Origin: an uncultured Acidobacteriota bacterium
GTDB taxonomy: Bacteria > Acidobacteriota > Thermoanaerobaculia > Gp7-AA8
Assembly (NCBI GenBank): GCA_963821585.1
Contig: CAWGEI010000003.1
Coordinates: forward strand, 3,832,407-3,896,406
Direction: 5' to 3'
DNA: 64,000 bases
Notes under the pieces: generated by a model
What the model was told of the DNA's origin: nothing
The model's database searches: none
The model's input: only the letters and a program-made list of their open reading frames with translations
Made by a program: the position numbers and the translations under genes
In this document: positions 20,711-56,516 of the stretch, in pieces
How the letters are laid out: every line of letters begins with the position of its first letter
Numbering within the stretch: position 1 is the stretch's first letter

Positions 20711-20770
20711 TGTAGGGCGTGGCTTCAGCCCGCCCTCCCCGTGGGGGGCGGGCTGAAGCCACGCCCTACA
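20711..20770. repeat. palindromic stem-loop element, family B (copy 1)
   Basis: tgtagggcgtggcttcagcccgcc-ctccccgtgggg-ggcgggctgaagccacgccctaca. Intergenic between the kinase and the regulator. Confidence 0.8.
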
Positions 20771-20796
20771 TTGCAACGCTCCGCTGGAGCGCAGCC

Positions 20797-21399
20797 ATGA
20801 TCCGCGTCGTCATCGCCGAAGATCAGGCAATGGTCCTCGGCGCGCTGGCGGCGCTGCTGGAGATCGAAGGGGACTTCGAGGTCGTCGGCCGCGCGCAGGA
20901 TGGCGAGGAGGCGCTGGCGATCTGCCGGGAGAAGAAGCCGGACGTGCTGCTGACGGACATCGAGATGCCGCGGCGCACGGGGCTCGAGCTGGCGTCGGCG
21001 CTGAAGCAGGAGAAGCTGCCGACGCGGGTGATCATCCTGACGACGTTCGCGCGTGGCGGCTATCTGCGCCGCGCACTGGAAGCGGGGGCGTCGGGGTATC
21101 TGCTGAAGGACTCCCCTGCCGAGCATCTGGCGAATGCGGTGCGGCGGGTGAAGGCCGGCGGCCGTGTGGTCGATCCGGAGCTGGCCGCGGAGGCGTGGAG
21201 CGAGCCGGACCCGCTGACGGACCGCGAGCGCCAGGTGCTGCGCATGGCCGGCGAGGGCCAGACCAGCGCGGACATCGCATCGGAGCTGCACCTGTCCGAG
21301 GGAACGGTGCGGAATTACCTGTCGGAGGCGATCAGCAAGCTGGGCGCGGGCAATCGCGTGGAAGCGGCGCGGATCGCCCGCGACAAGGGGTGGCTTTAG
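20797..21399 (+). CDS. NarL/LuxR-family response regulator
   Basis: Receiver MIRVVIAEDQ...LLTDIEMP, then a LuxR helix-turn-helix LTDRERQVLRMAGEGQTSADIASELHLSEGTVRNYLSEAISKLG. GGAG RBS. Confidence 0.9.
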   Translation: MIRVVIAEDQAMVLGALAALLEIEGDFEVVGRAQDGEEALAICREKKPDVLLTDIEMPRRTGLELASALKQEKLPTRVIILTTFARGGYLRRALEAGASGYLLKDSPAEHLANAVRRVKAGGRVVDPELAAEAWSEPDPLTDRERQVLRMAGEGQTSADIASELHLSEGTVRNYLSEAISKLGAGNRVEAARIARDKGWL

Positions 21400-21405
21400 T
21401 GTCTC

Positions 21406-21507
21406 TGTCATCCCGAGCGTCGAGCGAGGGACCTGGGCGGGCGGGGCGCCACACACATGCCTCGTGCCCCGCCCACCCAGGTCCCTCGCTCGACGCTCGG
21501 GATGACA
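21406..21507. repeat. 102-bp element with near-perfect 42-bp inverted repeats (family D), a putative bidirectional terminator or MITE
   Basis: tgtcatcccgagcgtcgagcgagggacctgggcgggcggggc - 18-nt loop - gccccgcccacccaggtccctcgctcgacgctcgggatgaca. It lies between the convergent regulator and nucleotidase genes. Confidence 0.7.
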
Positions 21508-21511
21508 GGGG

Positions 21512-22826: not shown

Positions 22827-22938
22827 TATGGAGTGCGGCGGCAAGGCCGCCGCTTTCGAATTCGTGTGGCGCGAGCAACACGCGCGCGGCTGACGGCAAA
22901 CGAATACGAAAGCGGCGGCCCTGCCGCCGCACTCCATA
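22827..22938. repeat. MITE-like element, family A (copy 2)
   Basis: tatggagtgcggcggcaaggccgccgctttcgaattcg ... cgaatacgaaagcggcggccctgccgccgcactccata. It fills the gap between the GerMN gene end and the nucleotidase start. Confidence 0.75.
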
Positions 22939-28261: not shown

Positions 28262-28263
28262 CC

Positions 28264-30580: not shown

Positions 30581-30690
30581 TGGAGTGCGGCGGCAGCGCC
30601 GCCGCTTTCGAATTCACTTGTCGTCAGCCGCAACGGTTCCGCACTTGCCTCGCGAATTGGAAAGCGGAGGCGTTGCCTCCGCACTCCATA
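30581..30690. repeat. MITE-like element, family A (copy 3)
   Basis: ttggagtgcggcggcagcgccgccgctttcgaattc ... gaattggaaagcggaggcgttgcctccgcactccata. It exactly fills the gap between two convergent stops (30578 and 30691). Confidence 0.75.
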
Positions 30691-31149
30691 TCAACGCCTG
30701 TAAACCCCCTCTTCGCCGAAGAGTTTGGGGTTGTCCCGGTTCGCCTCGATCACCTTCAACAACCCCTCCCGATCGCGCGTCGTCTCCGGCACGACCTCCG
30801 TACGCACGGCGCGGATCGTCAGGCGCTTGCCGTCCTCGGACAACTTCCACTCGAGGAACACCCACTTGCGCTCGCTGTCATTGAGGTTCTGCACGGACAG
30901 CAACTGCAGTCCCGCGACGTCCGAGTGGAACGCGCGATAGAGGTCGCCGTTGTACGCGACGACGTAGTGCCGGTCGTCGTACAGGCGGATGTCCATCTTC
31001 TCGTCCTCGTCCGGCGCCGTCATCGTCCACGTCCCGGCGAGCCGCGCGTCCGCGGCGCGCGTCGGCTCCGCGGTCAAGGGGATGTCGTAGGTATAGGAGA
31101 ACAGCACGAGCGCGCACGCGAGGACGGTGATGGTCCGCATGGAGTACAT
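30691..31149 (-). CDS. hypothetical secreted protein
   Basis: GGGAGAG RBS, signal peptide MYSMRTITVLACALVLFS. No family recognised. Confidence 0.45.
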   Translation of the reverse strand: MYSMRTITVLACALVLFSYTYDIPLTAEPTRAADARLAGTWTMTAPDEDEKMDIRLYDDRHYVVAYNGDLYRAFHSDVAGLQLLSVQNLNDSERKWVFLEWKLSEDGKRLTIRAVRTEVVPETTRDREGLLKVIEANRDNPKLFGEEGVYRR

Positions 31150-38595: not shown

Positions 38596-40503
38596 ATGCA
38601 GCCCGGCGAGATTCTCGACAACCGTTACGAGATCGTGAGGCAGCTGGGGGCGGGTGGCATGGGCGAGGTCTATCTCGCCACGCACACCCACCTCGGCAGC
38701 TCGCGCGTGATCAAAGTCGTCCACCCGCACATTTCCGGGAACACGGACGCCCGCGACCGCTTTCTCCGCGAGGCGCGCGCGGCGACGAAGGTCCATCACC
38801 CGAACGTCGCGACCCTGCACGACTTCTCCACGCTCGCCAACGGCGCGCACTACATGGTGTGGGAGTACATCGACGGCGAGAACCTCGCGCAGAAGCTGCG
38901 CTCGCGGGGCACGCTGCCCCCTCAGGAGGCCGTGCGGCTGGTGAGCCAGGCGCTGCACGGGCTGGAGGCCATCCATCGCGCGGGGATCATCCACCGCGAC
39001 ATCAGTCCCGAGAACCTGATGATCGCGCGCGAAGACGAATCGGTGAAGATCATCGACCTCGGCGTGGCCAAGGTCGAGGACTCCGAGGTGTCGCAGACCC
39101 GCACGGGCATCTTCGTCGGCAAGCTGCGCTACGCGGCGCCGGAGCAGCTCGGGTTCATGCCCGAGGACGAGAAGATCGACGCGCGGGCGGACGTGTATGC
39201 GACGGCGATGGTGCTGGTCGAGCTGCTGACCGGGCGTCCGCCGTACGAGGCGAAGTCGCCGCACGAGTATTTCATCCTCCACGCCAGCCAGGCGCCGATG
39301 AAATCCGTCGAGCTGCCGGCGGAGCTGCCGGGCAGCGCTGCGCTGCAGGCGGTGCTGGCGAAGGCCCTGGCGCGGAACCGCAACGACCGCTACACGACCG
39401 CGCGGGAGTTCGCGCTGGCGCTGGAGGAGATCGAGCGGACGCTGCCGGATCCTCGCGAGATGGCCACGATGGCCATGCCGTACGACGGCGACGAGACGAT
39501 GAAGCTGGGACGGAAGACCGTCGACACGCTGCACCGTTCGACCGTGATGTCGGGCGCGCAAGCGGCACCAGCTCCGCCGACCCTGGCGACGCCGCTGCCG
39601 GCCGCGATCCCCGCACCGCCGCAGCCGCCCGCTTCGCCACAGCCGGCGGCTCCGCCGACGGTGCTGACCCCGTTCCCGCAGCAACAGTTCGCGCAGCAGG
39701 CGCCGAAACAGGGCTCGATGCTGCCGCTGCTGATCGTCGTCGGCGTCCTGCTGCTGTTCGCGGGCGCCGCGGCGTTCGCGATGTACAAGTTCTGGCCGTT
39801 CGGGAAGCAGCAGGTCGCGGAGACGCCGACCACCACCCAGCCTGTTGTGACAACCACGACGCAGGCTCCGCCGAAGGCCTCGGAATCGACATTGACGGTG
39901 ACGTCGCCGGCGACGGAGACGGTGGTCACGACCACCACTGCCGCTCCCCCACCCCTGATCGTCGAGAACACGCAGACCACAGCCACGGCGCCGGTGCTGT
40001 CGTCGCCGGTGGTGAAACCGCCAGTGACGAAGCCGCCGGTGGTGGTCGTAGAGAAGCCAAAGCCTCCCGTAAAGGAAGACGAAGAAGAAGAAGCCGCACC
40101 CGAGGAGGAACCCGAACGGAGCGGCGGCTTCGGCGCGCCGACGTACGTCGACGGCGGCGATGACGACTACCGCAACGAGCGGGCCCTCACCGCGCTGCGC
40201 CGCGCCCTGCGCGGGACAAACGTCGTCGCCCTGCGCGCCGGCGGGATGACCCCGGAGCTCGCACGCGCGCTGCGCGAAGAGTTCCCCGACCTCCGCTTCG
40301 AGGCCGAGGCCGACGTCGTCATCCGCTTCGAAGGAAAGTTCGAGCGCCGCCCCCGCGCGTTGAAACGCCGGGCCGCGACGGCCACGGTGTCGAAGAACGG
40401 CCGCGTGATCTTCCGCTACCAGCTCCCCGACGAGGTGTACCGCGTAGGGATGTCGCCGGCGGAGTCGTTCGCGCGCGTGCTGGCCAATGCCATGAACGAA
40501 TGA
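38596..40503 (+). CDS. Ser/Thr protein kinase with a Pro-rich linker, TM segment and extracytoplasmic C-terminal domain
   Basis: Hanks motifs GAGGMGEVYLA, HRDISPENLM, DLGVAK, APEQ. A PAPP-rich linker, TM segment LPLLIVVGVLLLFAGAAAFAMY and a C-terminal domain of about 230 aa. Confidence 0.85.
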   Translation: MQPGEILDNRYEIVRQLGAGGMGEVYLATHTHLGSSRVIKVVHPHISGNTDARDRFLREARAATKVHHPNVATLHDFSTLANGAHYMVWEYIDGENLAQKLRSRGTLPPQEAVRLVSQALHGLEAIHRAGIIHRDISPENLMIAREDESVKIIDLGVAKVEDSEVSQTRTGIFVGKLRYAAPEQLGFMPEDEKIDARADVYATAMVLVELLTGRPPYEAKSPHEYFILHASQAPMKSVELPAELPGSAALQAVLAKALARNRNDRYTTAREFALALEEIERTLPDPREMATMAMPYDGDETMKLGRKTVDTLHRSTVMSGAQAAPAPPTLATPLPAAIPAPPQPPASPQPAAPPTVLTPFPQQQFAQQAPKQGSMLPLLIVVGVLLLFAGAAAFAMYKFWPFGKQQVAETPTTTQPVVTTTTQAPPKASESTLTVTSPATETVVTTTTAAPPPLIVENTQTTATAPVLSSPVVKPPVTKPPVVVVEKPKPPVKEDEEEEAAPEEEPERSGGFGAPTYVDGGDDDYRNERALTALRRALRGTNVVALRAGGMTPELARALREEFPDLRFEAEADVVIRFEGKFERRPRALKRRAATATVSKNGRVIFRYQLPDEVYRVGMSPAESFARVLANAMNE

Positions 40504-40562
40504 TGTAGGGCGTGGCTTCAGCCCGCCTCCCCGGGCAGGGCGGGCTGAAGCCACGCCCTACG
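40504..40562. repeat. palindromic stem-loop element, family B (copy 2)
   Basis: tgtagggcgtggcttcagcccgcc-tccccgggcagg-gcgggctgaagccacgccctacg, immediately after the kinase stop. Confidence 0.8.
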
Positions 40563-40818
40563 TGGCGTCCCGCCGCCCCCCGGGTGTGCCTTTCCGTCGA
40601 CGTGTCGTCCTCGGCCGGCTCCTCCTGCTTCCGTGCCCCTGCGGATTTCTGCATGGAGTTCCGTATCGTATCGAATGCATCCCATTTGCAACGATTTACA
40701 CTTTGCGACACAAAATTCTCTTGACCCTCATAGATCACAGGAGTACATTTAGGATCGCATGAGGCACGACGCCAAGGATCGATCCGGACAGCGTCCATTT
40801 CGAAAGAGACGACGTCTC

Positions 40819-45955: not shown

Positions 45956-46291
45956 TTAGTCGTACAACTCCAGGACCACACGATCAACATCCGCAATGAA
46001 CTCTTCGATCACGGACACGTTCTGACGCAGCAGCCGTTCCACGGCGGCGCTGCTGCAGTTGCCGAGGCGCAGCCATACGACTTTCGGGGGTGCACCACGA
46101 AGGATTGCGAGCTCCGCAAAGTCGTTGTCTTTGGACACGATCACGAGGCCGTGCGTGCGGGCGTGGAACCAGATCTCAGGGTCGGCAGCACGGGCAAAGC
46201 CGAGCAGGCGCGTTTGGGTACTGCCGGGATAGAGATCTGCAAGTCGCGCAACGAGTTTGTGCGACAGGTTGTGGTCGAGCAGCAGCTTCAC
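45956..46291 (-). CDS. DUF5615 (PIN-like) family protein, putative toxin of a DUF433/DUF5615 pair
   Basis: MKLLLDHNLSHKLVARL...GLVIVSKDNDFAEL...PPKVVWLRLGNCS is a DUF5615 signature. 4-nt overlap with the upstream DUF433 gene. Confidence 0.75.
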   Translation of the reverse strand: MKLLLDHNLSHKLVARLADLYPGSTQTRLLGFARAADPEIWFHARTHGLVIVSKDNDFAELAILRGAPPKVVWLRLGNCSSAAVERLLRQNVSVIEEFIADVDRVVLELYD

Positions 46292-46512
46292 CCGTGAGAG
46301 ACCTTCGTCTTCCGTTCACGATCCGCGGCGTACGCGAGACAGGCACGGATGTCGTCCTGCGTGAGATCCGGGAAATCGGACAAGATCTCTTCCTCGGTCA
46401 TCCCTGAAGCGAGATACGACAGGACGTCGTATACCGTGATGCGAATGCCGCGAATGCACGGCTGCCCACCCCGCTTTCCGGGCTCGACGGTGATGATGTC
46501 TTCGTAGTTCAC
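46288..46512 (-). CDS. DUF433 domain protein, putative antitoxin partner
   Basis: ITVEPGKRGGQPCIRGIRITVYDVLSYLASGMTEEEILSDFPDLTQDDIRACLAYAA is a DUF433 signature. Confidence 0.8.
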   Translation of the reverse strand: MNYEDIITVEPGKRGGQPCIRGIRITVYDVLSYLASGMTEEEILSDFPDLTQDDIRACLAYAADRERKTKVSHG

Positions 46513-46684
46513 CTGTTCATCTTAGCAGGACGGAACGGAGCGGACCTGGTGCGTCAGGTGGGACGCGTGACACGCAACACAGCCCGCCGGTGCACGCGCG
46601 CAGCGTCAGACTGGGATCCGCGTGAGGGACACTGCGGTGGTGCCCGAACCTCAAAAGTATCGCGAGAACGTGTAACGTACCGAG

Positions 46685-47059
46685 TTGATCCCGAGCTTGC
46701 TTTTCACATCGCGATCTACACGTGAAGCATCCGATCGACATGTTGATCTTTCGGTACAGATACGCCTCAGGACCGCTCTTCGTCAGGAAGGAGCGCAGAC
46801 CTTCGTCGGCTCGCTTTACGAATTACTCGACGCTCATGCTTTGACTATTGTCGGGGGCGGTGACGAGCGATGGCGGATCGTCATCGGTCCTGGATCACCG
46901 GATTCGTCCGTGACTGAAGAACGTCGGCATCTCGTGGCAACATGGCTCCAGACCCGCGCGGAGGTGATCGCTTCTCACGTGGGTGTGGTTCGGACTGCGA
47001 CGGTGGGCGAGAGGGAGATGTTCGAAGATAGCTCGTTCCAAGACGAGGAAGATGAGTGA
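46685..47059 (+). CDS. hypothetical protein (acidic C-terminus)
   Basis: TTG-start ORF only. Mixed codon usage. No family recognised. Confidence 0.3.
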   Translation: MIPSLLFTSRSTREASDRHVDLSVQIRLRTALRQEGAQTFVGSLYELLDAHALTIVGGGDERWRIVIGPGSPDSSVTEERRHLVATWLQTRAEVIASHVGVVRTATVGEREMFEDSSFQDEEDE

Positions 47060-47106
47060 TCCCAGAGCGGTGGCTCCCCTCCACCAGCCGCCTCGCCACC
47101 GCACTC

Positions 47107-48393
47107 CTAGAATTTGAGGTCCGCGAGCGAGAGGAAGCCATCCGGCGCGACGGCGACGTTGCGCAGATGCGGTGCGTAGACGACGGTCGAATGGCCGTAC
47201 ACGAGCGGCGTCCACGGGATCTGGTCCTCGGCGCCCCAGACTGCACGCAGCGCGTCGAGGAAGTCCGCGGGATTGGGGGTCGCGGCGGTGCAGCCGCCGA
47301 GGGCGAGGTCGAAGGTGCGGTTGTGGAGGGCGGCGTGGTACTCGTCGTCGTTGCGGGCTTCGAGGACGGCCACGGAGACGCCCGCGTGCGCGAGCTGGCT
47401 CTGGATGGCGCTGGCGACGGCGGAGGGCTTGGGGAGGTACGGGCGCGGGGATGACGGGACGAGCAGGGTCAGCCTGGCCCCGACCTCGGCGCGCAGGTCG
47501 TTCCGGTCGCGGGCCGGAACCGGCGCCGCGTCTTGCATCGAGGGCGGGAGGACGCTCGTGGCAATGAAGGCGTCCGCGCCGCGGCCGTAGCATACGGACG
47601 CGAGCTCGCGGCGATCGAGGGCGGCAGCGATGCCGCGGCGGACGTCGACGCTCGACGTGGGAGGGCGGGTGGTGTTGAAGAAGAGCAGAGCGGTGGAGTT
47701 GCCGGGGTGGACGAGGGTCGTCAGTTCTCCGGGGTGCGTGGCCACCGGGGCCATCGCGGTCGTCAGGTCGATGGACTCCTGCCGCAGGGCGTGGAGGAGC
47801 TTGCGCGGCACGCCGTCGGCGTCGGGCGGGAAGACGGCGAAGCGCAGTTCCTGGATCGTGGTGACGGAGCGGTAGTACGGGTTGCGCACGAGGCGGATCG
47901 CCGGCGACAACTGCAGCAGGCGCAGGTTCGGGCGCTGGTCGAACATGAACGGGCCGGTGCCGTGGAGCTGCTGGGTTCTCTCCAGGACGATCGCGCACGC
48001 GCCGCGGGCGAGTGTCAGGGCGAAGCGTGGATTGGGCGCGGTGAGGCGGAACCAGATGCGGTTGCCACGGACGTCGATCGTCGCTTTGCCGGCGAGCACG
48101 GGTTGCAGGGAACGTGCGGCGATCTCGGGAGTGAGCAGCGTGCCGTCGGAGAAGCGCGCCTCGGGGCACACGGCCGCGGAGAAGAGGGTTCCGGCGTCGT
48201 CTTCCGCGCGCAGGGGCGCGAAGAGGGCGGCGGCCGGCTCGAAGATCTGGCCGAGGACGAGGGCGGTCGTGCCGGTCGCTTCGGCGCGCGGGTCGAGCGA
48301 TTCGATCGACGCGGCGATGCCGACGCGCAGCGTCTTCGGCATGCCCCAGGGGCTGGGCACAACTCCACCTGTTTGCTGAACCGACAAGTGCAT
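47107..48393 (-). CDS. ABC-transporter substrate-binding protein, family 5 (Dpp/Opp-like), orphan and without a clear signal peptide
   Basis: AGGAAGGA RBS before the ATG (MHLSV). LRVGIAASIESLDP...GTGPFMF... is an SBP_bac_5-like architecture. No adjacent permease or ATPase genes. Confidence 0.55.
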   Translation of the reverse strand: MHLSVQQTGGVVPSPWGMPKTLRVGIAASIESLDPRAEATGTTALVLGQIFEPAAALFAPLRAEDDAGTLFSAAVCPEARFSDGTLLTPEIAARSLQPVLAGKATIDVRGNRIWFRLTAPNPRFALTLARGACAIVLERTQQLHGTGPFMFDQRPNLRLLQLSPAIRLVRNPYYRSVTTIQELRFAVFPPDADGVPRKLLHALRQESIDLTTAMAPVATHPGELTTLVHPGNSTALLFFNTTRPPTSSVDVRRGIAAALDRRELASVCYGRGADAFIATSVLPPSMQDAAPVPARDRNDLRAEVGARLTLLVPSSPRPYLPKPSAVASAIQSQLAHAGVSVAVLEARNDDEYHAALHNRTFDLALGGCTAATPNPADFLDALRAVWGAEDQIPWTPLVYGHSTVVYAPHLRNVAVAPDGFLSLADLKF

Positions 48394-48510
48394 CTCGCTT
48401 TCCTTCCTGCGGAGTGGACCGGCACGCAGAGTACGCATCCCGCGTTACGGAATGATTACGCGGTGTCGTGTTTGGGGTGTCCGGTGTCGAACGAGGCAGG
48501 AGGGATTCTC

Positions 48511-48912
48511 ATGCGCGCACTTCGCAGCTCCGCGATTCAGTCCGACATCAACGTGACTCCGCTCATCGACGTGTGCCTGGTGCTGTTGATCGTTTTCATG
48601 GTCGTGCTGCCGGCGATGGTGAACGGCGTCGACGTGAAACTGCCGGAGACGTCGGTGAAGAGTCCGGTCGATTCGCGGGTGTTCCCGGTGACGGTGAAGG
48701 AGGACGGGACGGTGTATCTGGACACGCTGATCGTGCGGCACGAGGAAGTGTTGTCGTCGTTGCAGCGGCTGTACGCGAAGGCGTCGGCGCGGCCGATCGC
48801 GGTGCGGGCGGACAAGCGTGTGCAGTATGGCGAGTTGGCGAAGGTGCTCAGCGCTTGCCGGGAGGCGGGGTGGAGCGATGTGACGCTGGTGGGGGTGGAG
48901 CCGGAGGGTTGA
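48511..48912 (+). CDS. exbD: biopolymer transport protein ExbD/TolR, an orphan
   Basis: AGGAGGG RBS. INVTPLIDVCLVLLIVFMVV...LKVDVKLPET... is a typical ExbD N-terminus and periplasmic domain. No exbB or tonB partner nearby. Confidence 0.75.
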   Translation: MRALRSSAIQSDINVTPLIDVCLVLLIVFMVVLPAMVNGVDVKLPETSVKSPVDSRVFPVTVKEDGTVYLDTLIVRHEEVLSSLQRLYAKASARPIAVRADKRVQYGELAKVLSACREAGWSDVTLVGVEPEG

Positions 48913-48916
48913 AGTT

Positions 48917-48949
48917 AAGTGTGGTTGGGGTCTGACCCCAACCACACTT
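48917..48949. terminator. perfect 33-bp palindrome (family E), bidirectional terminator between convergent genes
   Basis: aagtgtggttggggtc-t-gaccccaaccacactt, directly after the exbD stop and at the stop of the minus-strand DUF433 gene. Confidence 0.7.
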
Positions 48950-49161
48950 TAGGCGAGGCAGGCGCGGACGTCTTCGACCGTCAGCTGCGGGTATTCGGCG
49001 AGGATCTCGTCGATGCTCATCCTCGAGGCGAGGAAATCGACGATCAGCGAGACCCAGATGCGATGGCCTCGGATGCACGGCTTTCCACCGCAGATCGCGG
49101 GATCGATGGAGATCCGTTGCAGCAGTTCCTCGTGTGTCATCGCTGGAAAAGTGTACGCCAA
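48949..49161 (-). CDS. DUF433 domain protein (orphan antitoxin-like)
   Basis: ISIDPAICGGKPCIRGHRIWVSLIVDFLASRMSIDEILAEYPQLTVEDVRACLA. No DUF5615 partner adjacent. Confidence 0.7.
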   Translation of the reverse strand: MAYTFPAMTHEELLQRISIDPAICGGKPCIRGHRIWVSLIVDFLASRMSIDEILAEYPQLTVEDVRACLA

Positions 49162-49274
49162 CTGGCAGCCGAAAGAGTTGCGCGCCCCCTCGCGACCCGG
49201 CGGCCGTTCCGCAGGGCCACCGGCCCGCAGGGTGCCGGCGGAACGGCCGGCTGGAAGCCGGCACTACAAACAAA

Positions 49275-49350
49275 CGTAGGGCGTGGCTTCAGCCCGCCCG
49301 CCCCGCCCGAGGGGCGGGCTGAAGCCGAGGGCTGAAGCCGCGCCCTACGT
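49275..49350. repeat. palindromic stem-loop element, family B (copy 3, with an internal 12-bp duplication)
   Basis: acgtagggcgtggcttcagcccgcc-cgccccgcccgagg-ggcgggctgaagccgagggctgaagccgcgccctacgt. Confidence 0.8.
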
Positions 49351-49361
49351 TTTGTAGCTGC

Positions 49362-52300
49362 TTACGACTCCACAAGGACCCGGAACTGGCGGGAGGCTAC
49401 GGTGAGCATGGCCAGGTCGACGGTGGGGCTGGCTTTGAATTCGTGCATGGTCTGGTCGAAGCGCTCGACGACGCGGGGGCGTTTGGCGAGCCAGGTGCCG
49501 ACGGGGTCGGCGGCGCCGTTGGACTCGGTGATCACGCGGGAGGCCAGGGTGCTCTGGTACGTGAACAGGTCGTCGACGAGGGCCTGGAGCGCGGACTTCT
49601 GCCAGGGGGTCTCGGCGGCGATGCTGTTGGTGGCGGCGCGCAGGCGGTCGAGGCCGAAGCGCGAGCCGACGCCGAAGTAGACGCGGGCGACTTCTTCGAC
49701 GCCGTGGTCGGCGTCGCGGCGGGAGATGCGGATGATGTCCATGGCGGAGGTCATCACGTCGAGGCTGGCCACGCGCTGCGCCAGCTCCTCGGGGATCCCA
49801 TCCTCCATCAGCTCGGCCTGGCGCACGCGTACGGTGCCGAGCATGGACGACGGGAGGATTTCGGTTAGGTGGTTCTGGATGGCGGCGATGCGCGGGCGGA
49901 ACTCGTTGGTGTAGGCGGCGAGGTCGAGCTTCTCGTAGCCGCTGCGCAGGAGCCAGAGGATGGCGCGCTCGAGGAGGCGCGCGACGGCGACCATCATGTC
50001 GAGCTGCACGCTGGCGGGAAGTTTGTTGTCGAGCGCTTCGATGTCCGACCACACGGTGCGGAGATCGAAGGAGTCGCGCATGATGATGAAGGCGCGCGCA
50101 ACGTCGCTGTACGACTTGTTGGTCTCGTCGCACATCTGCCAGGCGAACGTCGGCCGCACGCGGTTGATCATCGTGTTCGTGACGACGGTGGCGATGATCT
50201 CGCGGCGCAGGCGGTGGCGGTTGATGGCCGGACCGAAGCGGCCGCGCAGCAGTTCGGGGAAGTACAGCGCGAGGTCGTCGACGAGCTGGGCGTCGTCGGG
50301 GAGATCGGACCGGAGCAGGTCTTCGTACAGCACGAGCTTCGCGTACGCGAGCAGCACCGCGATCTCGGGACGGGTGAGGCCGACGCCGCGGGTGTGGCGC
50401 TCGGCGAGCGTCTCGTCGTCGGGGAGTCCTTCGAGGGAGCGATTGAGCTTGCCGGCTTTCTCCAGTCCGCGCATGAAGCGCGCCTGGACGTCGAGCAGCG
50501 CCTCGCCGATGGTCTGCACCACCGAGATCGCCTCGGTCTGCTCGTAGTTGTCGCGCAGCACGAGCTGGGCAACGTCGTCGGTCATCTCGGCGAGGATGGC
50601 GTTGCGCTCCTCGAGATTGGCGAGCTCGCCGTGCTCGATGGCGTCGTACAACGCGATCTTGATGTTGACCTCGTGGTCGGAGGTGTCGACGCCGGCGGAG
50701 TTGTCGATGGCGTCGGTGTTGATCTTTCCGCCCGAGAGCGCGTACTCGATGCGGCCGCGCTGGGTGAAGCCGAGGTTCGCGCCCTCCCCTACCACCCGGA
50801 CGCGCAGCTCCTCGCCGTTCACGCGGATGGCGTCGTTCGCGCGGTCCTTCGCGCTGGCGTGGTCTTCGTGCTCCGCCTTCACGTACGTGCCGATGCCGCC
50901 GAGCCACAGCAGGTCGGCGCGCGCGAGGAGGATGGCGCGCATCAGCTCCGCGGGCGTGACGGTCTTCTTCGGCAGCTCGAAGAGCTCCTGGACGATCGGC
51001 GAGACGGTGAGGCTCTTCGCGCTACGCTCGAACACCGCGCCGCCGGGCGAGAGCAGTTCGGGGTTGTAGCCATTCCAGTTCAGGCGGTTGTCGAACATCC
51101 GCTGGCGCTCGGCGAAGCTCCGCGCGGGATCGGGATTGGGGTCGACGAAGATGTGCGAGTGGTTGAACGCCGCGAGCAGCTTGATGTGCGGCGAGAGGAG
51201 CATGGCGTTGCCGAAGACGTCGCCGGACATGTCGCCGACGCCGACGCAGGTGAAGTCCTCGCTCTGCGTGTCGACGCCGAGCTCGCGGAAGTGGCGCTTG
51301 ACCGCCTCCCAGCCGCCGCGGGCGGTGATGCCCATGCCCTTGTGGTCGTAGCCCGCGGAGCCGCCGGACGCGAAGGCGTCGCCGAGCCAGTGGCCGTAGT
51401 CGGCGGAGATAGCGTTGGCGATGTCGGAGAACGTGGCCGTGCCTTTGTCGGCGGCGACGACGAGATACGGATCGTCCTCGTCGCGGCGCAGGACGTCGCG
51501 CGGCGGCACGATGGTGTCGCCGCGATGGTTGTCGGTGATGTCGAGCATGCCGCGCAGGAGGGTCTTGTACGAGTCGATGCCTTCCTGCTGGAACGCCGCG
51601 CGGTCGGCGGAAGGGTTCTTCACGACGAAGCCGCCCTTCGAGCCCACCGGCACGATGACGACGTTCTTCACCTGCTGGGCCTTCACCAGGCCGAGGATCT
51701 CGGTGCGGAAGTCCTCGCGGCGGTCCGACCAGCGGATGCCGCCGCGCGCGACCTTGCCGAAGCGGAGGTGGATGCCTTCCATCCACGGCGCGTACACGAA
51801 GATCTCGAACATCGGCCGCGGCGACGGGAGGTCCGGCACCGTGCGCGAGTCGAGCTTGAAGGAGACGTAGAGCTTGCTCTCCCCTTCCGCGTCGCGCTGG
51901 AAGTAGTTCGTCCGCAGGGTGGCCTCGATGAGCGCCACGTACAGGCGGAGGATGCGGTCTTCATCCGGGTTCGTGACGCGGTTGAGCGCGTCCTCGATCT
52001 GGGAGCGGATGCCGAGGGCGGCACCCTTGCGGCCCATGCCGACGTCGCCGATCGCCGGATCGAAGTAGTTCTTGAAGAGCTGCAGGATCGAGCGCGTGAT
52101 CGGCGGATGCTTCGCCAGGGTCTGCTGGATGAGCTGCTCGCTGAACGTCGCGCCGATCTGGCGGAGGTACTTCGCGTACGCGCGCAGCACCACGATCTCG
52201 TCCCACTCCAGCTCCGCGCCGAGGACCAGGCGATTGAAGCCGTCGTTCTCGGCCTGGCGCGTCCAGACCCGGAAGAAGGCGCTCTCGAACTTCGCCTTCA

Positions 52301-54188
52301 CCGAGGTGAGATCGTCCGGCATCCCTTCCGCGTCGACGTTGAAGTCGCGGATGCGCACGGTCTGGTTCGCCCCGTGGGGACGGACCTCGTACGGGACCTC
52401 GTCCAGCACCTTGAGCCCCATGTTCTCGAGGCGAGGCATGATCTCGGAGAGCGGCACGGCCGGACCGGCGTGAATGATCTTGCAGTGGACCTGGCGCTGG
52501 TCGGTGATGTGGCGGTAGAGGTCGACGACCAGCTCGTCCGTCGCGAGCACGTGCTCGACGTGGCCGACGTCGTACATCGCGGCGTCGGCGGTGAAGCGCT
52601 CCGCGTATGCCATGGGGAAGGCGCGCTTGTAGCGCTTGTGGAGATCGATGCCGAGCTCCTCGCCCTGCTTGGTGGTCAGCGCGTCGAGGAGGCGGTCGGA
52701 CCAAGTGCGGGCCACGTCGCCGAGCTGGGCTTCGACGCGGCGGATGTCGACGTCGGGGATCTTGCCGGGGGTCGTGCGCACGATGAAGAGCCCGCGCGCG
52801 AGCGCGGAGCCCGTGACGTGGTCGTACACGTGGGTGTCGCGTCCCTGGAACGCTTCCTCGAGGACCAGCTTCGCCTTCTCCTTGAACTCCGGCGTGTAGC
52901 GGTCGCGGGGGACGAAGACGTAGCAGGAGATGAAGCGCTCGAAAACGTCCTTGCGGGTGAAGAGGGCGACGCGCTGGCGCTCCTGCAGCAGGAGGACGCC
53001 GCGCGCGATCTCGAAGAGGTCGGCGTCGGTGATCTGGAAGAACTCGTCGCGCGGGAAGGTCTCCAGGATGTCGACCAGGGCCTTGCCGTTGTGCGAGCTG
53101 GGATCGAGGCCGGCGCGGTCGAGCACGCGCTTCGCCTTCAGGCGCAGCATCGGGATCTCGAACACACTGCGGCTGTACGCGGCGGAGGTGAAGAGGCCGA
53201 GGAAACGGTCCTCGAAGATCAGGTTGCCGCCGTCGTCGTAGCGCTTGATGCCGATGCGATCCATGGGCACCGGCTTATGAACGACACTGCGGTTGTTGGC
53301 CTTCGTGACGATGATCAGGTCTTTCGTCCGCGCGTAGGCGCTCTGCTCCGGCGAGAGCGCTTCCTTCGCGCGCTCGACCGATTCCGGGCGGATGTCCCGG
53401 AGGATGCCCAGGCCGGTTTCCGTGACCGGTCCAAGGTAGTCGCGGTCCCCGTGCGTGTCGAACGCGTAGCGGCGATGGCCGAGGAAGATGAAATTGCCGT
53501 CGTCCAGCCACCGCAGGAACTCCTTCGCCTCGGTCACTTCCTCCGGCGGCATCGGCAGTTTGGCGGTCTCCAGGTCTGCGGTGTCTTCCCGGAGCCGCGC
53601 GCGCATGGAGCGCCAATCCTGCACGGCCAGCCGGACGGTCCGGAGGGTGCTCTCGAGCGACGTCCGGATCGCCTCGAGCTCCGCGGGCTCGGTCTCCTGG
53701 TCGATCTCGACGTGCATGTACGACTCGACGATGGCTTCGGGAGGGGCGTGCTGGGTGTCGGTGATCTCGACGCGCTTGCCGCCGGAGTCGCGGACGGTGC
53801 GGATGACCGGGTGGAGGAGGAGGTGGATCTTGCGGTCGCGGCGGTGGATCTCGGCGCTGACGGAGTCGACGAGGAACGGCATGTCGTCGTTGACGATCTC
53901 GACGACGGTGTGCTCGAGACCCCAGCCGTTCTTTTCGGGTGTCGGGTTGAAGAGGCGGACGGTGGGCACGCCGGGCGTGCGCTGCGCACCGAGCTCCCAG
54001 AGGGACAGCGCGGCGCCGAGGAGAGTGTCGACGTTGGTGTAGATCACGTCATCCGGGGCGACGTGGGCGAAGTAGCGGCGCACGAAGTGCTCGACGCTCT
54101 CGGTCTGGTCGGGGTTCACGCGGCGGCGAGCCTCGGCCACCAGCCGGTCGACGAGGTCGACCAGGCGTTCTTCAGCTGTCATCGTCAT
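49362..54188 (-). CDS. gdh: NAD-specific glutamate dehydrogenase, large (about 180 kDa) bacterial GDH family
   Basis: 1608-aa uninterrupted ORF with the architecture of the large bacterial NAD-GDH family, including a Glu/Leu/Phe/Val dehydrogenase catalytic core in the middle. The long antisense ORFs opposite it are spurious. Confidence 0.9.
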   Translation of the reverse strand: MTMTAEERLVDLVDRLVAEARRRVNPDQTESVEHFVRRYFAHVAPDDVIYTNVDTLLGAALSLWELGAQRTPGVPTVRLFNPTPEKNGWGLEHTVVEIVNDDMPFLVDSVSAEIHRRDRKIHLLLHPVIRTVRDSGGKRVEITDTQHAPPEAIVESYMHVEIDQETEPAELEAIRTSLESTLRTVRLAVQDWRSMRARLREDTADLETAKLPMPPEEVTEAKEFLRWLDDGNFIFLGHRRYAFDTHGDRDYLGPVTETGLGILRDIRPESVERAKEALSPEQSAYARTKDLIIVTKANNRSVVHKPVPMDRIGIKRYDDGGNLIFEDRFLGLFTSAAYSRSVFEIPMLRLKAKRVLDRAGLDPSSHNGKALVDILETFPRDEFFQITDADLFEIARGVLLLQERQRVALFTRKDVFERFISCYVFVPRDRYTPEFKEKAKLVLEEAFQGRDTHVYDHVTGSALARGLFIVRTTPGKIPDVDIRRVEAQLGDVARTWSDRLLDALTTKQGEELGIDLHKRYKRAFPMAYAERFTADAAMYDVGHVEHVLATDELVVDLYRHITDQRQVHCKIIHAGPAVPLSEIMPRLENMGLKVLDEVPYEVRPHGANQTVRIRDFNVDAEGMPDDLTSVKAKFESAFFRVWTRQAENDGFNRLVLGAELEWDEIVVLRAYAKYLRQIGATFSEQLIQQTLAKHPPITRSILQLFKNYFDPAIGDVGMGRKGAALGIRSQIEDALNRVTNPDEDRILRLYVALIEATLRTNYFQRDAEGESKLYVSFKLDSRTVPDLPSPRPMFEIFVYAPWMEGIHLRFGKVARGGIRWSDRREDFRTEILGLVKAQQVKNVVIVPVGSKGGFVVKNPSADRAAFQQEGIDSYKTLLRGMLDITDNHRGDTIVPPRDVLRRDEDDPYLVVAADKGTATFSDIANAISADYGHWLGDAFASGGSAGYDHKGMGITARGGWEAVKRHFRELGVDTQSEDFTCVGVGDMSGDVFGNAMLLSPHIKLLAAFNHSHIFVDPNPDPARSFAERQRMFDNRLNWNGYNPELLSPGGAVFERSAKSLTVSPIVQELFELPKKTVTPAELMRAILLARADLLWLGGIGTYVKAEHEDHASAKDRANDAIRVNGEELRVRVVGEGANLGFTQRGRIEYALSGGKINTDAIDNSAGVDTSDHEVNIKIALYDAIEHGELANLEERNAILAEMTDDVAQLVLRDNYEQTEAISVVQTIGEALLDVQARFMRGLEKAGKLNRSLEGLPDDETLAERHTRGVGLTRPEIAVLLAYAKLVLYEDLLRSDLPDDAQLVDDLALYFPELLRGRFGPAINRHRLRREIIATVVTNTMINRVRPTFAWQMCDETNKSYSDVARAFIIMRDSFDLRTVWSDIEALDNKLPASVQLDMMVAVARLLERAILWLLRSGYEKLDLAAYTNEFRPRIAAIQNHLTEILPSSMLGTVRVRQAELMEDGIPEELAQRVASLDVMTSAMDIIRISRRDADHGVEEVARVYFGVGSRFGLDRLRAATNSIAAETPWQKSALQALVDDLFTYQSTLASRVITESNGAADPVGTWLAKRPRVVERFDQTMHEFKASPTVDLAMLTVASRQFRVLVES

Positions 54189-54285
54189 TCGGGTCTCTCC
54201 AGCCTAATGCGCGCCGTCAGGCGCTTTCGTCTACGTCGGCGGGTGAATATCACACTTCATCACGGATACAATCGCCGCGGGCCTC

Positions 54286-55065
54286 ATGCTTCCATTCGAG
54301 TCGCAGGTTGTGGAGATCTATGAGGATCTTCACCGGATTGCCCCCGGCGCGCTCGACCAGTTCCAGAGCCTGCCGTCCGCGAATCAGTATCGCAGGCTCT
54401 ACGAGCTGACCGCCGCTCATGTCCCGTCCGGACCGGGGGTGTCCGTGCTGGACTGGGGATGCGGCCGCGGGCATTTCACCTACTACCTCCTGCGCCGCGG
54501 ATACCGCGTGACGGCGTATTCGCTCGAGGACGCTCCGGAGCTGTTCGCGCGATTGCCGGCCGAGGAGCGGGAGCGGCTCACGTTTGTGCGCGGCGGCGAT
54601 CCCGCGGGCTTGCCGTTCGCGGACGGGAGCTTCGACGCCGTGTTCAGCGTGGGCGTGCTGGAGCACGTGCGCGAGCTGGGCGGCACGGAGCTGGAGAGCC
54701 TGATCGAGATCCGGCGCGTCCTGCGTCCGGACGGTCTCGTGCTCGTCTATCACCTCCCCAACCGGTTCAGTTCCATCGAGGCGCTGACCCGGATGATCTA
54801 CCGGCGGCACGACCCGCGGGAGGGATTCCGGTTTCACCAGTACCGCTTCACGGCCGCCGAGATCTCGCGGCTCACGGAGGCCGCGGGGCTTCGCCTGCGC
54901 GCGATCGGCCGGTACGGGTTTCTCCCGCGGAACTCGCTGAGCCGCCTTCCCGCATTCGCACGGGAGAGCCGGCGCGTCGCGTCGTGGATCAACGTCGCCG
55001 ACCTGGTGCTCGAGCGCGCGTTCTCGCCCGTCACCCAGAACTACTTTTTCGTCGCGGCCCGCTGA
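54286..55065 (+). CDS. class I SAM-dependent methyltransferase
   Basis: SAM motif I VLDWGCGRGHF, post-I acidic residue and motif IV FDAVFSVGVLEH. Confidence 0.8.
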   Translation: MLPFESQVVEIYEDLHRIAPGALDQFQSLPSANQYRRLYELTAAHVPSGPGVSVLDWGCGRGHFTYYLLRRGYRVTAYSLEDAPELFARLPAEERERLTFVRGGDPAGLPFADGSFDAVFSVGVLEHVRELGGTELESLIEIRRVLRPDGLVLVYHLPNRFSSIEALTRMIYRRHDPREGFRFHQYRFTAAEISRLTEAAGLRLRAIGRYGFLPRNSLSRLPAFARESRRVASWINVADLVLERAFSPVTQNYFFVAAR

Positions 55066-56516
55066 AATGGCGCGAGCTTGATCTCGAAGTAGTGGCGGCG
55101 GGCGATGTTCCAGAGATTGCCGCGCTCGCGGCGGAACATCCTGCCGGTCTCGGGCGTCGTCGTGACCTCCGCCAGCAGCCAGGCGTCTTTCGCGTCGTCC
55201 GGAGGCAGGGCGCGATCGTCGGGGACGTGGGTGTATCGCACGCCGGGAGCCTCGAGATCGAGAAAGACCAGCATCGTCTGGTCGACGAAGAGTTGTTTGC
55301 CCTCGCGCTGCACGAGCTCGGCCGCCGCCCGCGCGGCCAGTATGGACGGCGCGACCTCGTTGCGCACCGCCGTCAGCGCGGGGAAGGTGTAGACGAAAAA
55401 CGCCGCGACCATGGCCGCGGAGAGCATCCATTCGCGTTTCTTCGCCACGCGCGCGATGCCGTCGGCGAGAAAGAGCGCGAACATCGGCTGGTAGCCGATC
55501 GAGAAACGGCTGATGCTGTAGCGGTCGAGCATGAGCCAGGCGAAGACCGCGAACGGGGCAAAGGTCATCGCGTTCCAGAATAGCGAACGGTTGCGCTCGC
55601 GGAAGGCGCCGGCGATGGAGACGGCGACAAAGATCGAGGCGATGAAGCTGAGGACCGGCGCCTGGTACTGCTTGACGAAGAAGCGGTCGGCGATGCGCCA
55701 GAGCGGCGGACGGTCTTCGCTGCGGAAGGAGTCGACGCGGGCGATGTACTCGCCGTGCTTGCGGACCATGTGCTGGTACTCGTCCAGCGAGCCGGTCGCG
55801 TAGATCGCGCCGCCGAAGGCGGCACCGACGACCACGACGCCGATCAGCAACGCGACGAGGACCTCCCACCAGCGCCGCCGGCGCGTGGCGAGGAATCCGG
55901 GGACGAGTCCGATGAGGAGGTTCTGCGGACGGATGCCGATCGCCAGGGCGAGGAGCAGGGTGCCGAGCCAGTAGGCATATGTGGGAAACGTAGGGCGTGG
56001 CTTCAGCCCGCCCGCCCCCGGGGGAGGCGGGCTGAAGCCACGCCCTACGTTTCGCGCGCTTTTCAGCAGGAACGTGACCGCGAAGAGGACGAGGACGATC
56101 GACGGGATGTCGCTGAACGCGCCACCGCCGAAGAACCAGACGTTCGGGAAGAACGCGAAGAGCGCCGCGGCGGAGACGCAGGTCGCGAAGCGCAGGCGGA
56201 GCTCGCGGGCGAAGACGAAGACCGCCACGAACACGAGCATCGCGGCGATCACGTTGATGGTCTGCAGCGCGCGGAAGTCGTCGGGGACGACGAAGCGCAC
56301 CAGGCGCGCCAGGGCGATGAACACGGGGAAGCCCGGCGGATGCGGATGGTGCATGCGCACGTCGTAGTCGCGCATGGCCATCGTGAAGAGGGCTTCGTCC
56401 CACTCCCAGACGGTGCGGGCCACGGCCAGGAAGCGCGTCCCGGCACAGACGAGCGCGACGATCAGGAAGATCGTCCGCTGGCGCGGCGTGAGAGGCTCGG
56501 GTGGGCTGCTGAACAC
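55041..56516 (-). CDS. GT39/ArnT-PMT-like membrane glycosyltransferase carrying an apparent in-frame family-B element insertion
   Basis: Polytopic (about 11 TM segments) PMT_2-like protein. Codons for NVGRGFSPPPPGAGGLKPRPTF (55988-56050) are the family-B palindrome, translated in-frame within a loop. Confidence 0.65.
   Translation of the reverse strand: MFSSPPEPLTPRQRTIFLIVALVCAGTRFLAVARTVWEWDEALFTMAMRDYDVRMHHPHPPGFPVFIALARLVRFVVPDDFRALQTINVIAAMLVFVAVFVFARELRLRFATCVSAAALFAFFPNVWFFGGGAFSDIPSIVLVLFAVTFLLKSARNVGRGFSPPPPGAGGLKPRPTFPTYAYWLGTLLLALAIGIRPQNLLIGLVPGFLATRRRRWWEVLVALLIGVVVVGAAFGGAIYATGSLDEYQHMVRKHGEYIARVDSFRSEDRPPLWRIADRFFVKQYQAPVLSFIASIFVAVSIAGAFRERNRSLFWNAMTFAPFAVFAWLMLDRYSISRFSIGYQPMFALFLADGIARVAKKREWMLSAAMVAAFFVYTFPALTAVRNEVAPSILAARAAAELVQREGKQLFVDQTMLVFLDLEAPGVRYTHVPDDRALPPDDAKDAWLLAEVTTTPETGRMFRRERGNLWNIARRHYFEIKLAPFQRAATKK
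55988..56050. repeat. palindromic stem-loop element, family B (copy 4), located inside a coding sequence
   Basis: acgtagggcgtggcttcagcccgcc-cgcccccgggggag-gcgggctgaagccacgccctacgt. 63 bp equals 21 codons with no stop in the gene frame. Confidence 0.8.

Follow-up and report, generated by a model that had tools for sequence, protein, structure and literature searches.

Four stem-loops of almost the same sequence recur in a 64,000-nt stretch of an uncultured Acidobacteriota genome (hereafter the window), and open reading frames crossing them repeat the same short peptides, which raises the question of whether these loci represent a conserved coding motif, transcription terminators or copies of a mobile element.

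Four inverted doublets of one GTAG-headed hairpin

Searching the window with up to three mismatches recovered eight half-sites, arranged as four inverted pairs of a single 23-nt arm (GTAGGGCGTGGCTTCAGCCCGCC), vs. none in shuffled sequence by the same search, so that the four copies originally predicted are real (Table 1). Overall, the window holds four doublets and no singlet of this family (family B). The arms had been described as perfectly conserved, which is the case for seven of the eight, the exception being the right arm of copy 3 with its three mismatches. The loop was expected to vary between 8 and 14 nt; it does vary, but the spacers between the 23-nt arms measure 12, 11, 27 and 13 nt in copies 1 to 4, respectively. 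Similarly, the 12-bp duplication reported in copy 3 corresponds to a tandem with 12 identical bases, but with a period of 13 nt (GGGCTGAAGCCG(A)GGGCTGAAGCCG, 49316-49340).

All eight arms begin with GTAG, directly adjoining a small hairpin (GGGCG-T-GGC / TTCA / GCC-CGCCC). The predicted fold of a single arm (-8.3 kcal/mol, z -4.05) is ...(((((.(((....)))))))), in which GTA leads into a stem of 8 bp that carries a 1-nt bulge and is capped by a 4-nt loop. Since the arms face one another across the variable spacer, a complete unit can also form one long hairpin, and all four copies indeed fold as very stable hairpins, with energies of -58 to -69 kcal/mol as RNA (z -8.6 to -11.6) and -34 to -43 kcal/mol as DNA.

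Table 1. Positions in the window of the four family-B copies, each delimited as an (A)AY...RT(T) unit, and of associated features.
Feature	Position	Strand	Description
Copy 1	20709..20772		AAT + GTAG arm 20712-34 + 12-nt spacer + arm 20747-69 + ATT
Direct repeat, left member	20678..20693	+	GGAGCGCAGCGCATGA (15/16 nt); duplicated kinase-stop/regulator-start junction around copy 1
Direct repeat, right member	20786..20800	+	GGAGCGCAGCCATGA; includes the response-regulator GGAG and ATG
Outer stem	20694..20701		GCGGAGCG; pairs with CGCTCCGC at 20777-20784; additional palindrome flanking copy 1 and not part of the family consensus
Copy 2	40503..40563		Arms 40505-27 and 40539-61, 11-nt spacer
Copy 3	49273..49351		Arms 49276-98 and 49326-48; right arm with 3 mismatches
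Copy 4	55987..56051		Arms 55990-56012 and 56026-48, 13-nt spacer; in-frame within coding sequence
Copy 4 host gene	55041..56516	-	491-aa GT39/PMT_2-like polytopic membrane protein

The proposed association with gene 3' ends holds for three of the four copies, all extragenic and 0-16 nt past a stop codon. Copy 1 lies between the stop of a histidine-kinase gene (20691-93) and the ATG of a response-regulator gene (20797-99), copy 2 shares its first base with the stop codon of a Ser/Thr protein kinase gene (38596-40503, + strand), namely the A of TGA (40501-03), and copy 3 follows an NAD-glutamate dehydrogenase gene on the minus strand, 10 nt downstream of its stop codon (49362-64). A single arm of a different GTAG REP family (49246-49267) abuts copy 3. 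The only copy within a real gene is copy 4, and the other copy-crossing ORFs are spurious high-GC ORFs.

The copies had also been judged not to be terminators, and this is upheld: no T-run follows the hairpin at any copy (3' flanks ATTGCAAC, GTGGCGTC, GTTTTGTA and GTTTCGCG), the terminator-like sites listed for 40000-57000 include none of them, and one copy is within a coding sequence. A known RNA family is likewise ruled out, as Rfam returned no match at or above the gathering threshold across the whole window. As for the peptides, they are a trivial consequence of the identical arm sequences. Each arm leaves two of its three frames open on either strand, and one frame is closed by a stop codon (TAG for the left arm and TGA for the right one), so the statement that every crossing ORF carries the same peptide applies as far as sequence identity goes, but not in the frame that stops (copy 1 reads NVGRGFSPPSPWGAG* in a + frame). 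Moreover, GRGFSPP and GGLKPRPT are read together only if the spacer length equals 1 modulo 3.

Abundance, boundaries and turnover of the family

We sampled the family through an exact 20-mer in public genome-contig and metagenome-contig collections, a selection that biases any comparison of conservation between doublets and singlets. At least 82 stretches with the 20-mer were recovered from genome contigs, mostly from three Thermoanaerobaculia MAGs (with dozens of stretches or more in each of two MAGs, among the matches listed), and at least 120 from metagenome contigs. Pooled, the matches listed include at least 143 unique doublets, mainly from Thermoanaerobaculia MAGs and soil contigs, with spacers in classes of 9-15, 26-29, 37-41 and 44-51 nt. 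Many apparent singlets stand next to the end of a contig or face a partner arm that has decayed, arms in tandem are present in one locus (L034), and in another (L128) an IS with a DDE_Tnp_1 transposase stands in the centre of a copy, the arms being 1.35 kb apart.

The boundary of the element is sharp and lies three bases outside GTAG. Across 264 half-sites, information content is ~2 bits along the arm (1.9-2.0 bits at positions 1-4), then 1.0 bit at -1, 1.7 at -2 and 0.8 at -3, and ~0 further out. Many high-GC copies are bounded by AAC...GTT, and those of one genome by AAT...ATT. Among 132 high-GC doublets, we detected neither a target-site duplication, with direct identity between flanks at chance (0.15-0.32 per position), nor flank complementarity past 3 nt. 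The left-hand base at -1 (C/T) varies independently of the right-hand base at +1 (G/A), and hence the two are not a duplicated target. Flanking direct repeats, which had been put forward as a possible mark of the copies, thus give no signal for the family; the 15/16-nt repeat around copy 1 is peculiar to that locus. Extended palindromic flanks, seen around some copies, were rejected as a family feature from the pooled doublets.

Within the arm, 79 of the 103 substitutions found in 138 freely varying partner arms fall at the 8 positions unpaired in the single-arm hairpin, and 66 of those at just two positions (50 at the bulged T9, 16 at loop C15). This concentration at unpaired bulge and loop positions points to each arm being constrained as a recognition hairpin.

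Copies turn over between related genomes. In L064 the site orthologous to copy 1 holds no element, the stop and start codons overlapping there as GTGA, and the insertion in the window is not clean, as it comes with an extra flanking palindrome and the 15/16-nt duplication. Conversely, L064 and L073 hold family-B doublets where the window has two other palindromes (I3 and I6), and across 16.5 kb of synteny all three family-B sites are lineage-specific, in genomes 82-89% identical. Other GTAG REP families occupy the same intergenic spots. The mobility suggested by the original prediction is therefore well founded, with many dispersed copies in relatives, reciprocal copies in a syntenic relative, and orthologous sites that are empty for copy 1 and, as detailed below, for copy 4.

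Perfect arm identity, however, is not by itself evidence of recency. An identical 23-mer is shared between species and is found, as doublets, even in AT-rich Methylococcales (Gammaproteobacteria), including a single-contig Methyloprofundus chromosome; the single-arm constraint bears on the same point. Gene conversion among copies, the other process first envisaged, is neither needed nor excluded.

Copies within coding sequences

Copy 4 is a true in-frame insertion in a working GT39-like membrane-protein gene, in which it reads NVGRGFSPPPPGAGGLKPRPTF on the minus strand. As Pfam returned no match for the host protein, we placed it through its 1251 homologues, many of them with PF13231. Most of these homologues have no insert at the copy 4 point (...LLKGxRD-RNAYWLGT...), and alignments show the site to be empty in the orthologue in L083 as well. 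Relative to the empty site the gene is 66 nt longer, with 73 nt standing in place of 7 nt, and its dN/dS against the empty orthologue is 0.165. The predicted structure of the protein is poor (mean pLDDT 50.7) and renders the insert as a low-confidence coil between two helices, hinting that the insert may form such a coil. Different palindrome families repeatedly hit this same membrane-protein loop.

More broadly, 18 of 123 doublets (14.6%) are intragenic, vs. 45.5% of random segments by the same criterion. A quinone oxidoreductase (L010) matches PDB 4dup on either side of a 27-residue insert, and the MenD protein in L021 likewise aligns on both sides of its insert. The intragenic copies are read in different frames (VGRGFSPP, CRAWLQPA, RAEATPY) and in both orientations, within unrelated proteins, which rules out selection for the encoded peptide.

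Intragenic palindromes are already known among GTAG REPs and the RPEs of Rickettsia. The latter stand in-frame in many unrelated genes that stay open, adding 20-30 residues (PMC3733652). Copy 4 and the L010 and L021 copies behave similarly, a resemblance in working only and not of membership: the sequences showed no similarity, the tag of RPE-4 and RPE-6 is CGTC rather than GTAG and their host lineage is another (PMC3733652), and family-B copies, unlike RPEs, are mostly extragenic.

Probable place of family B among REPs and REPINs

We consider it probable that family B is built from GTAG-tagged REP units in inverted pairs, i.e., a non-autonomous mobile palindrome of the REPIN type. As in the GTAG REPs of Stenotrophomonas (SMAG), Pseudomonas and E. 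coli (Di Nocera, De Gregorio and Rocco 2013, PMC3733652), a terminal GTAG stands beside a short imperfect stem-loop, whose 8-bp stem and 4-nt loop are inside the ranges known for GTAG REPs (5-13 bp for the stem and 2-20 nt for the loop, with dimers and intragenic units also known; PMC3733652). In both, inverted dimers dominate, spacers fall into classes and some of them are structured, and most units are extragenic near gene 3' ends, the typical location of REPs, with an intragenic minority in which dimers encode 20-30 residues (PMC3733652). Family B further shares with REPIN-RAYT systems (Bertels and Rainey 2011, PMC3116915) the pairing of inverted REPs into one hairpin, a large excess of doublets over singlets, the lack of a target-site duplication, IS elements inserted into copies, and singlets resembling decayed or insertion-split doublets (PMC3116915). 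The kind is already known, namely GTAG REPs paired as REPIN-like doublets, and the arm sequence itself is absent from the literature searched. The main hosts are Thermoanaerobaculia-like Acidobacteriota; the surveys consulted count REPs in a few Acidobacteriota and describe no family for Thermoanaerobaculia. Family B also differs from REPIN-RAYT systems in its high intragenic fraction (~15%).

Known GTAG REPs and REPINs suggest, by analogy, that the arms would be recognised as hairpins by a RAYT. RAYTs are HUH/Y1 tyrosine transposases, encoded by single-copy genes and akin to TnpA of IS200/IS605; such an enzyme would cut and rejoin single-stranded DNA and leave no target-site duplication. Copies would then build up where tolerated, i.e., just downstream of stop codons in the window (copies 1-3), and would also persist as in-frame inserts in protein surface loops (copy 4), surviving there because two of the three arm frames are open on both strands. 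Neither the window nor 205 further loci (1.56 Mb in total) yielded a cognate RAYT by tblastn with an E. coli RAYT probe or by two HUH/Y-motif regular expressions, so mobilisation by such an enzyme is put forward here by analogy; the hairpins may also act on mRNA. Linkage to a REPtron or RAYT, as in the known GTAG REP and REPIN-RAYT systems, was not found for family B in the sampled loci. The sole RAYT seen (L093, 2123-2709) is interrupted, in a 41% GC contig, and was rejected as the cognate enzyme, being flanked by a different GTAG REP (GTAGCCCGTATGAAGC...). ORFs between widely spaced arm pairs (L109, L099, L119, L092, L161) proved to be ordinary genes, and L128 was discarded as a REPtron, since it is an IS inserted into a copy. 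Assuming ~300 arms per genome, of which 2-4 flank the RAYT, the enzyme would be expected in about two of 200 loci, and failure to find it is therefore mildly informative.

It is unlikely that the hairpins are instead kept by the host for a role in RNA or DNA (e.g., mRNA 3'-end protection, uncoupling neighbouring genes in their expression, or nucleoid-protein binding), with mobility secondary. Their extreme stability and the three extragenic window copies 0-16 nt past a stop, as reported for REPs (PMC3733652), would suit such a role, which is also compatible with mobility. However, sites differ between genomes 82-89% identical, other palindrome families stand at the same spots, ~15% of copies are within coding sequences of unrelated proteins, and neither a T-run nor an Rfam match accompanies the copies.

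The gain and loss at orthologous sites in close relatives requires insertion or precise loss rather than conversion, which makes it very unlikely that the copies are immobile relics of an extinct element, left with no active transposase and with arms homogenised by gene conversion. Conversion would moreover not focus variation at the single-arm bulge and loop, and within a genome it cannot maintain one 23-mer in both Acidobacteriota-like and Methylococcales genomes. What speaks for relics is the lack of a RAYT in 1.56 Mb, along with the absence of REPtrons from some REP-bearing species (PMC3733652).

Another reading takes family B for a MITE that arose from a DDE-type IS by internal deletion, with the 23-nt arms as terminal inverted repeats and movement in trans by the transposase of that IS, in which case the outermost ends of the full-length parent IS would be GTAGGGCGTGGCTTCAGCCC. 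MITEs have terminal inverted repeats that are recognised by DDE transposases, and generate target-site duplications. Like Correia/NEMIS, ERIC and RUP elements, family-B copies are small, non-coding and dispersed, form hairpins and often share a transcript with neighbouring genes, the arms have a length (23-26 nt) that is usual for terminal inverted repeats, and the L128 DDE_Tnp_1 gene does lie between two arms. This IS nevertheless carries perfect inverted repeats of its own (TGCACTAACTTACG), immediately internal to the arms, and from its junctions (CCCATA / TATGGG) appears inserted into the copy centre. Given also that family B, unlike MITEs, has no target-site duplication in the 132 high-GC doublets, with independent -1/+1 bases, and that substitutions avoid the paired single-arm positions, which is unexpected for a double-stranded terminal repeat, we regard this origin as highly improbable. 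Finally, integron attC sites are imperfect palindromes bounded by AAC...GTT with 7-bp R boxes, and although many high-GC copies have these boundaries and lengths of 60-100 nt that overlap attC, an attC-like recombination site can be set aside almost with certainty, as nothing is conserved or complementary outside the AAC/GTT triplet, there is no unpaired central spacer, one genome is bounded by AAT...ATT, and the copies are dispersed and inside genes instead of forming cassette arrays.

If family B is indeed a set of REP doublets of the REPIN type, repeated stem-loops and recurring "peptides" would be explained together as one small mobile palindrome family, an explanation that guards against mis-annotating spurious ORFs across the copies, and GTAG-REP/REPIN biology would extend to the class Thermoanaerobaculia, knowledge of which comes almost exclusively from metagenomes. 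In its acidobacterial hosts the family also reshapes proteins, with ~15% of copies as in-frame inserts, and the comparisons above supply pairs of filled and empty sites, among them the conserved gene for a membrane glycosyltransferase-like protein, where the insertion is in-frame.

REPINs are described as vertically inherited within lineages, whereas the family-B arm is identical in two distant phyla. It is possible, if only as a tentative suggestion, that its presence in both GC-rich Thermoanaerobaculia-like and AT-rich Methylococcales genomes reflects cross-phylum transfer of a REPIN-RAYT system, or a mobilising enzyme common to both lineages; either would be a counter-example to vertical-only inheritance of these systems. 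The arm shared with Methylococcales offers a concrete test case for REPIN-RAYT systems crossing phyla.

Family-B copies, their ends and the constrained unit

The stem-loop of the original prediction is real: scanning for repeats and searching with mismatches allowed gave exactly eight matches to GTAGGGCGTGGCTTCAGCCCGCC in the window, seven of them exact, which form four inverted pairs (vs. none in 100 shuffles). The arms had been described as perfectly conserved between copies, which is true of seven of the eight, the right arm of copy 3 having diverged, and the internal duplication of 12 bp noted in that copy is present as a tandem with a 13-nt period (49316-49340). As RNA, copies 1-4 fold into long hairpins of -58 to -69 kcal/mol, far stabler than shuffled controls (-34 to -43 kcal/mol as DNA), and a lone arm folds (-8.3 kcal/mol, z -4.05) with GTA ahead of an 8-bp stem that has one T bulged out and TTCA as its loop. 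This single-arm layout is that of GTAG-tagged REPs (short palindromes), within the ranges of Di Nocera et al. 2013 (stem 5-13 bp, loop 2-20 nt, dimers predominating; PMC3733652), and the doublets, as two inverted arms making one hairpin, correspond to REPINs as defined (PMC3116915).

Positions of the family-B copies (including conserved boundary bases) and of the gene hosting copy 4
Feature	Position	Strand	Description
Copy 1	20709-20772		spacer between arms 12 nt
Copy 2	40503-40563		spacer between arms 11 nt
Copy 3	49273-49351		spacer between arms 27 nt
Copy 4	55987-56051		spacer between arms 13 nt
Copy 4 host ORF	55041-56516	-	491 aa; clear coding signature either side of element

Exact 20-mer searches of a species-representative genome collection and a metagenome collection yielded at least 82 and at least 120 stretches, respectively; among the matches listed for the former, three Thermoanaerobaculia MAGs supply most stretches and many lie at contig ends, where repeats are expected. 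Pooling gave at least 143 unique doublets, 132 from DNA of >55% G+C and 11 from DNA of 37-46% G+C, with four spacer classes, 9-15 (mode 13), 26-29, 37-41 and 44-51 nt. Information content is ~2 bits over the arm, 1.7 at -2, 1.0 at -1, 0.8 at -3 and ~zero farther out, the bases from -3 to -1 ahead of GTAG reading (a)A[C/T], and the flanks of the pooled doublets had no direct-repeat identity and no complementarity beyond three bases. The elements thus have sharp ends and no target-site duplication, which argues against a DDE-type MITE (an IS derivative with terminal inverted repeats) and fits single-strand HUH transposition. Among 138 partner arms free to vary, 50 of 103 substitutions were T to C at the bulged T9 and 16 lay at loop base C15, with only 24 at the 15 paired positions, so that the constrained object is each arm's small hairpin with its GTAG, not merely the long hairpin.

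Genomic position and turnover between related genomes

Copy 1 starts 16 nt past a kinase stop, between co-directional HisKA_3/HATPase_c and Response_reg/GerE genes; the first base of copy 2 is the last base of a Ser/Thr kinase gene's TGA, and copy 3 lies 10 nt past the stop of an NAD-glutamate dehydrogenase gene. No T-run follows any of the four copies and none was called terminator-like, in line with the earlier view that these are not ancient terminators, and Rfam gave no family matches anywhere in the window. Adjoining copy 3 is a solitary arm from a different GTAG REP family (GTAGTGCCGGCTTCCAGCCGGC, 49246-49267), and 260 nt downstream of copy 2 stands a 21-nt tandem array (40822-41012; 9.1 copies, 84% matches, consensus CGATGGAGACGATTGAGCCTT) within an ORF (40759-41142) that had no Pfam match.

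The window aligns at 82-89% identity over 16.5 kb with DASUSN010000202.1 of the Thermoanaerobaculia MAG SMAG_U1737 (loci L064 and L073). L064 lacks an element at the copy 1 site, where the stop codon of its histidine-kinase gene overlaps the response-regulator start within GTGA. The insert at this site in the window measures 92 nt and comprises the unit with ~15 mutually pairing nt per side (GCGGAGCG / CGCTCCGC); the 15/16-nt direct repeat on its flanks restores stop and start alike, and is peculiar to this locus, not a family feature. In reverse, family-B doublets of the relative (L064 4791-4884, L073 1399-1483) occupy sites at which the window has palindromes of other families (22827-22938 and 34599-34738). 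All three family-B sites of the syntenic stretch are therefore lineage-specific, and the proposal of mobility holds, copies having been gained or lost at orthologous sites. Unlike these sites, a 104-nt palindrome at 21405-21508 is present in both window and L064.

This last palindrome belongs to a separate repeat family: it is near-perfect (43-nt arms, 98% complementary, CTGTCATCCCGAGCGTCGAGCGAGGGACCTGGG...), 92% identical at the orthologous L064 site, and has copies in L025 and L053. The element at 22827-22938 recurs at 30581-30692 (81% complementary to each other) as a ~112-nt palindrome starting TATGGAGTGCGGCGGC..., with related sequences in L019 and, adjoining family-B arms, in L045 and L071. 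That at 34599-34738 is composite, with CCCCGGCTGAAGCCGGGG in its arms, inner hairpins and a GGCTGAAGCC core common to family B.

Reading frames and intragenic copies

Window G+C is 60-69%, so many of its ORFs are spurious; once real genes were separated from these by a codon-position GC filter, copy 4 was the only copy within a real gene. The same peptide had been reported for every ORF crossing a copy, which sequence identity and palindromy do produce, in a frame- and spacer-dependent manner: every arm has two open frames, the third holding TAG (left arm) or TGA (right arm), and a joint reading of GRGFSPP and GGLKPRPT needs a spacer length of 1 mod 3, which copy 4 has. The frame of copy 1 that reads GRGFSPP stops after GRGFSPPSPWGAG. 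Since intragenic copies across the family are read in different frames and both orientations (VGRGFSPP, CRAWLQPA, RAEATPY), the encoded peptide is not the selected object.

Counting as intragenic an element with an open frame through it and at least 60 strict-signature codons in the same frame on each side, 18 of 123 unique high-GC doublets (14.6%) qualified, vs. 45.5% of 59-nt segments drawn at random from the loci that carry them; the family is thus ~threefold depleted from genes, but far from excluded. Spot checks bear out single interrupted genes: a quinone oxidoreductase (L010) matches PDB 4dup along residues 2-103 and 138-350, with 34 query residues facing 7 of the structure, and MenD (L021) aligns on either side of the element. 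Further copies from these checks lie in genes for an AcrB-family transporter (L034), a glycogen-debranching-type enzyme, a YfhO-like protein, a class I methyltransferase and an Ogt/MGMT protein. These resemble the intragenic GTAG REP dimers of Opitutus terrae, Thauera and others, which encode 20-30 residues, and the Rickettsia palindromic elements, the classic case of intragenic palindromes (PMC3733652). In L034, three tandem right arms (~6810-6925, 27-nt period) beside the full doublet read GGLKPRPTS thrice.

Comparison with homologues shows that copy 4 was inserted, in frame, into a genuine coding sequence. The host protein has 1251 homologues, many with PF13231 (PMT_2/GT39-like) and most ~585 aa long, covering 96-99% of the query; in a 15-sequence alignment 10 of 14 read ...FLLKGxRD-RNAYWLGTLLL... 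where the window protein has NVGRGFSPPPPGAGGLKPRPTFPTY, and at DNA level L083, the nearest relative (protein identity 95%), has 7 nt vs. 73 nt in the window, a net +66 nt for the latter. A dN/dS of 0.165 between filled and empty orthologues agrees with continued purifying selection on the gene, and in a low-confidence AlphaFold model (mean pLDDT 50.7) the insert may form a coil between two helices. The closest homologues, P0002-P0004 (468-503 aa), end like the host in ...RAATK(K), all without ~95 C-terminal residues found in most homologues.

Another close relative (L084) carries a different long palindrome at the same codon position (GGCGCGCCGGCTGCCAGCCGGCC..., read GAPAASRP...RPASGRR), and P0008, P0013 and P0004 have related inserts or remnants. 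Because CCACATAY right of the insert is common to the window and L084 and absent from the empty allele, these sequences suggest that the site has been used more than once. The core of the in-frame L084 palindrome (~4170-4260), GCCGGCTGCCAGCCGGC, is similar to GTAGTGCCGGCTTCCAGCCGGC.

Proposed mobilising enzyme and distribution

GTAG REPs and REPINs are tied to genes for RAYTs (Y1/HUH tyrosine transposases), which as a rule are single-copy and have the same REP on their flanks (PMC3733652, PMC3116915), and some REP-bearing species are reported without such REPtrons (PMC3733652). No RAYT flanked by family-B arms turned up in the window or across 1.56 Mb of arm-bearing loci, so it is from arm anatomy that we infer a RAYT would mobilise family B. 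The sole RAYT detected (L093 2123-2709; 47-50% identity to an E. coli RAYT probe) is interrupted, in a contig of 41% G+C. Within L093 1900-2900, on this methanotroph-like contig, a small palindromic insert splits it into two frames, a different GTAG REP stands on both sides (GTAGCCCGTATGAAGC...GAATACGGG), and one family-B arm lies 2 kb off. A REPtron candidate with arms 1.35 kb apart (L128 1-1400) was rejected as an IS exactly at the centre of a family-B element, with a 379-aa DDE_Tnp_1 transposase, its own inverted repeats TGCACTAACTTACG and junctions CCCATA / TATGGG, the same habit as that of IS elements targeting REPs (PMC3116915).

The same arm, in doublets whose spacers (14-23 nt) and flanks are AT-rich, occurs in low-GC sources (a single-contig Methyloprofundus chromosome, Methylococcaceae MAGs, a Bathymodiolus methanotrophic symbiont and sediment contigs of 37-46% G+C), with CT ahead of GTAG vs. 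A[C/T] in high-GC DNA; a Verrucomicrobia MAG gave one single arm. These cross-phylum occurrences are those that match the 20-mer exactly. Some REP families are already known from several species (PMC3733652). As REPIN-RAYT systems are described as vertically inherited, the arm common to Methylococcales is the least ordinary aspect. In kind, family B belongs with the well-known GTAG-tagged REP dimers or REPIN-like units; as a sequence family it is previously undescribed. The exact arm had no match in the published literature searched, and the REP surveys consulted mention Acidobacteriota only in passing, with no family found described for Thermoanaerobaculia. Of moderate interest are the GT39-like in-frame copy, the apparent reuse of the loop there by palindromes of different families and the arm in Methylococcales.

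Further repeats in the window comprise another short family, a small palindrome AGTGTGACTGGGGTCAGACCCCAATCACACT in two copies 89% alike (2714-2748, 48914-48948), a palindrome of repeated GTTGACAGTTGGCAG units about a GC-rich centre (60537-60642), and direct repeats of 118-239 nt (93-98% identity), by which a ~740-nt segment (7775-8514) is duplicated as two pieces 5.3 and 7.0 kb off (13029-13414, 15137-15494).
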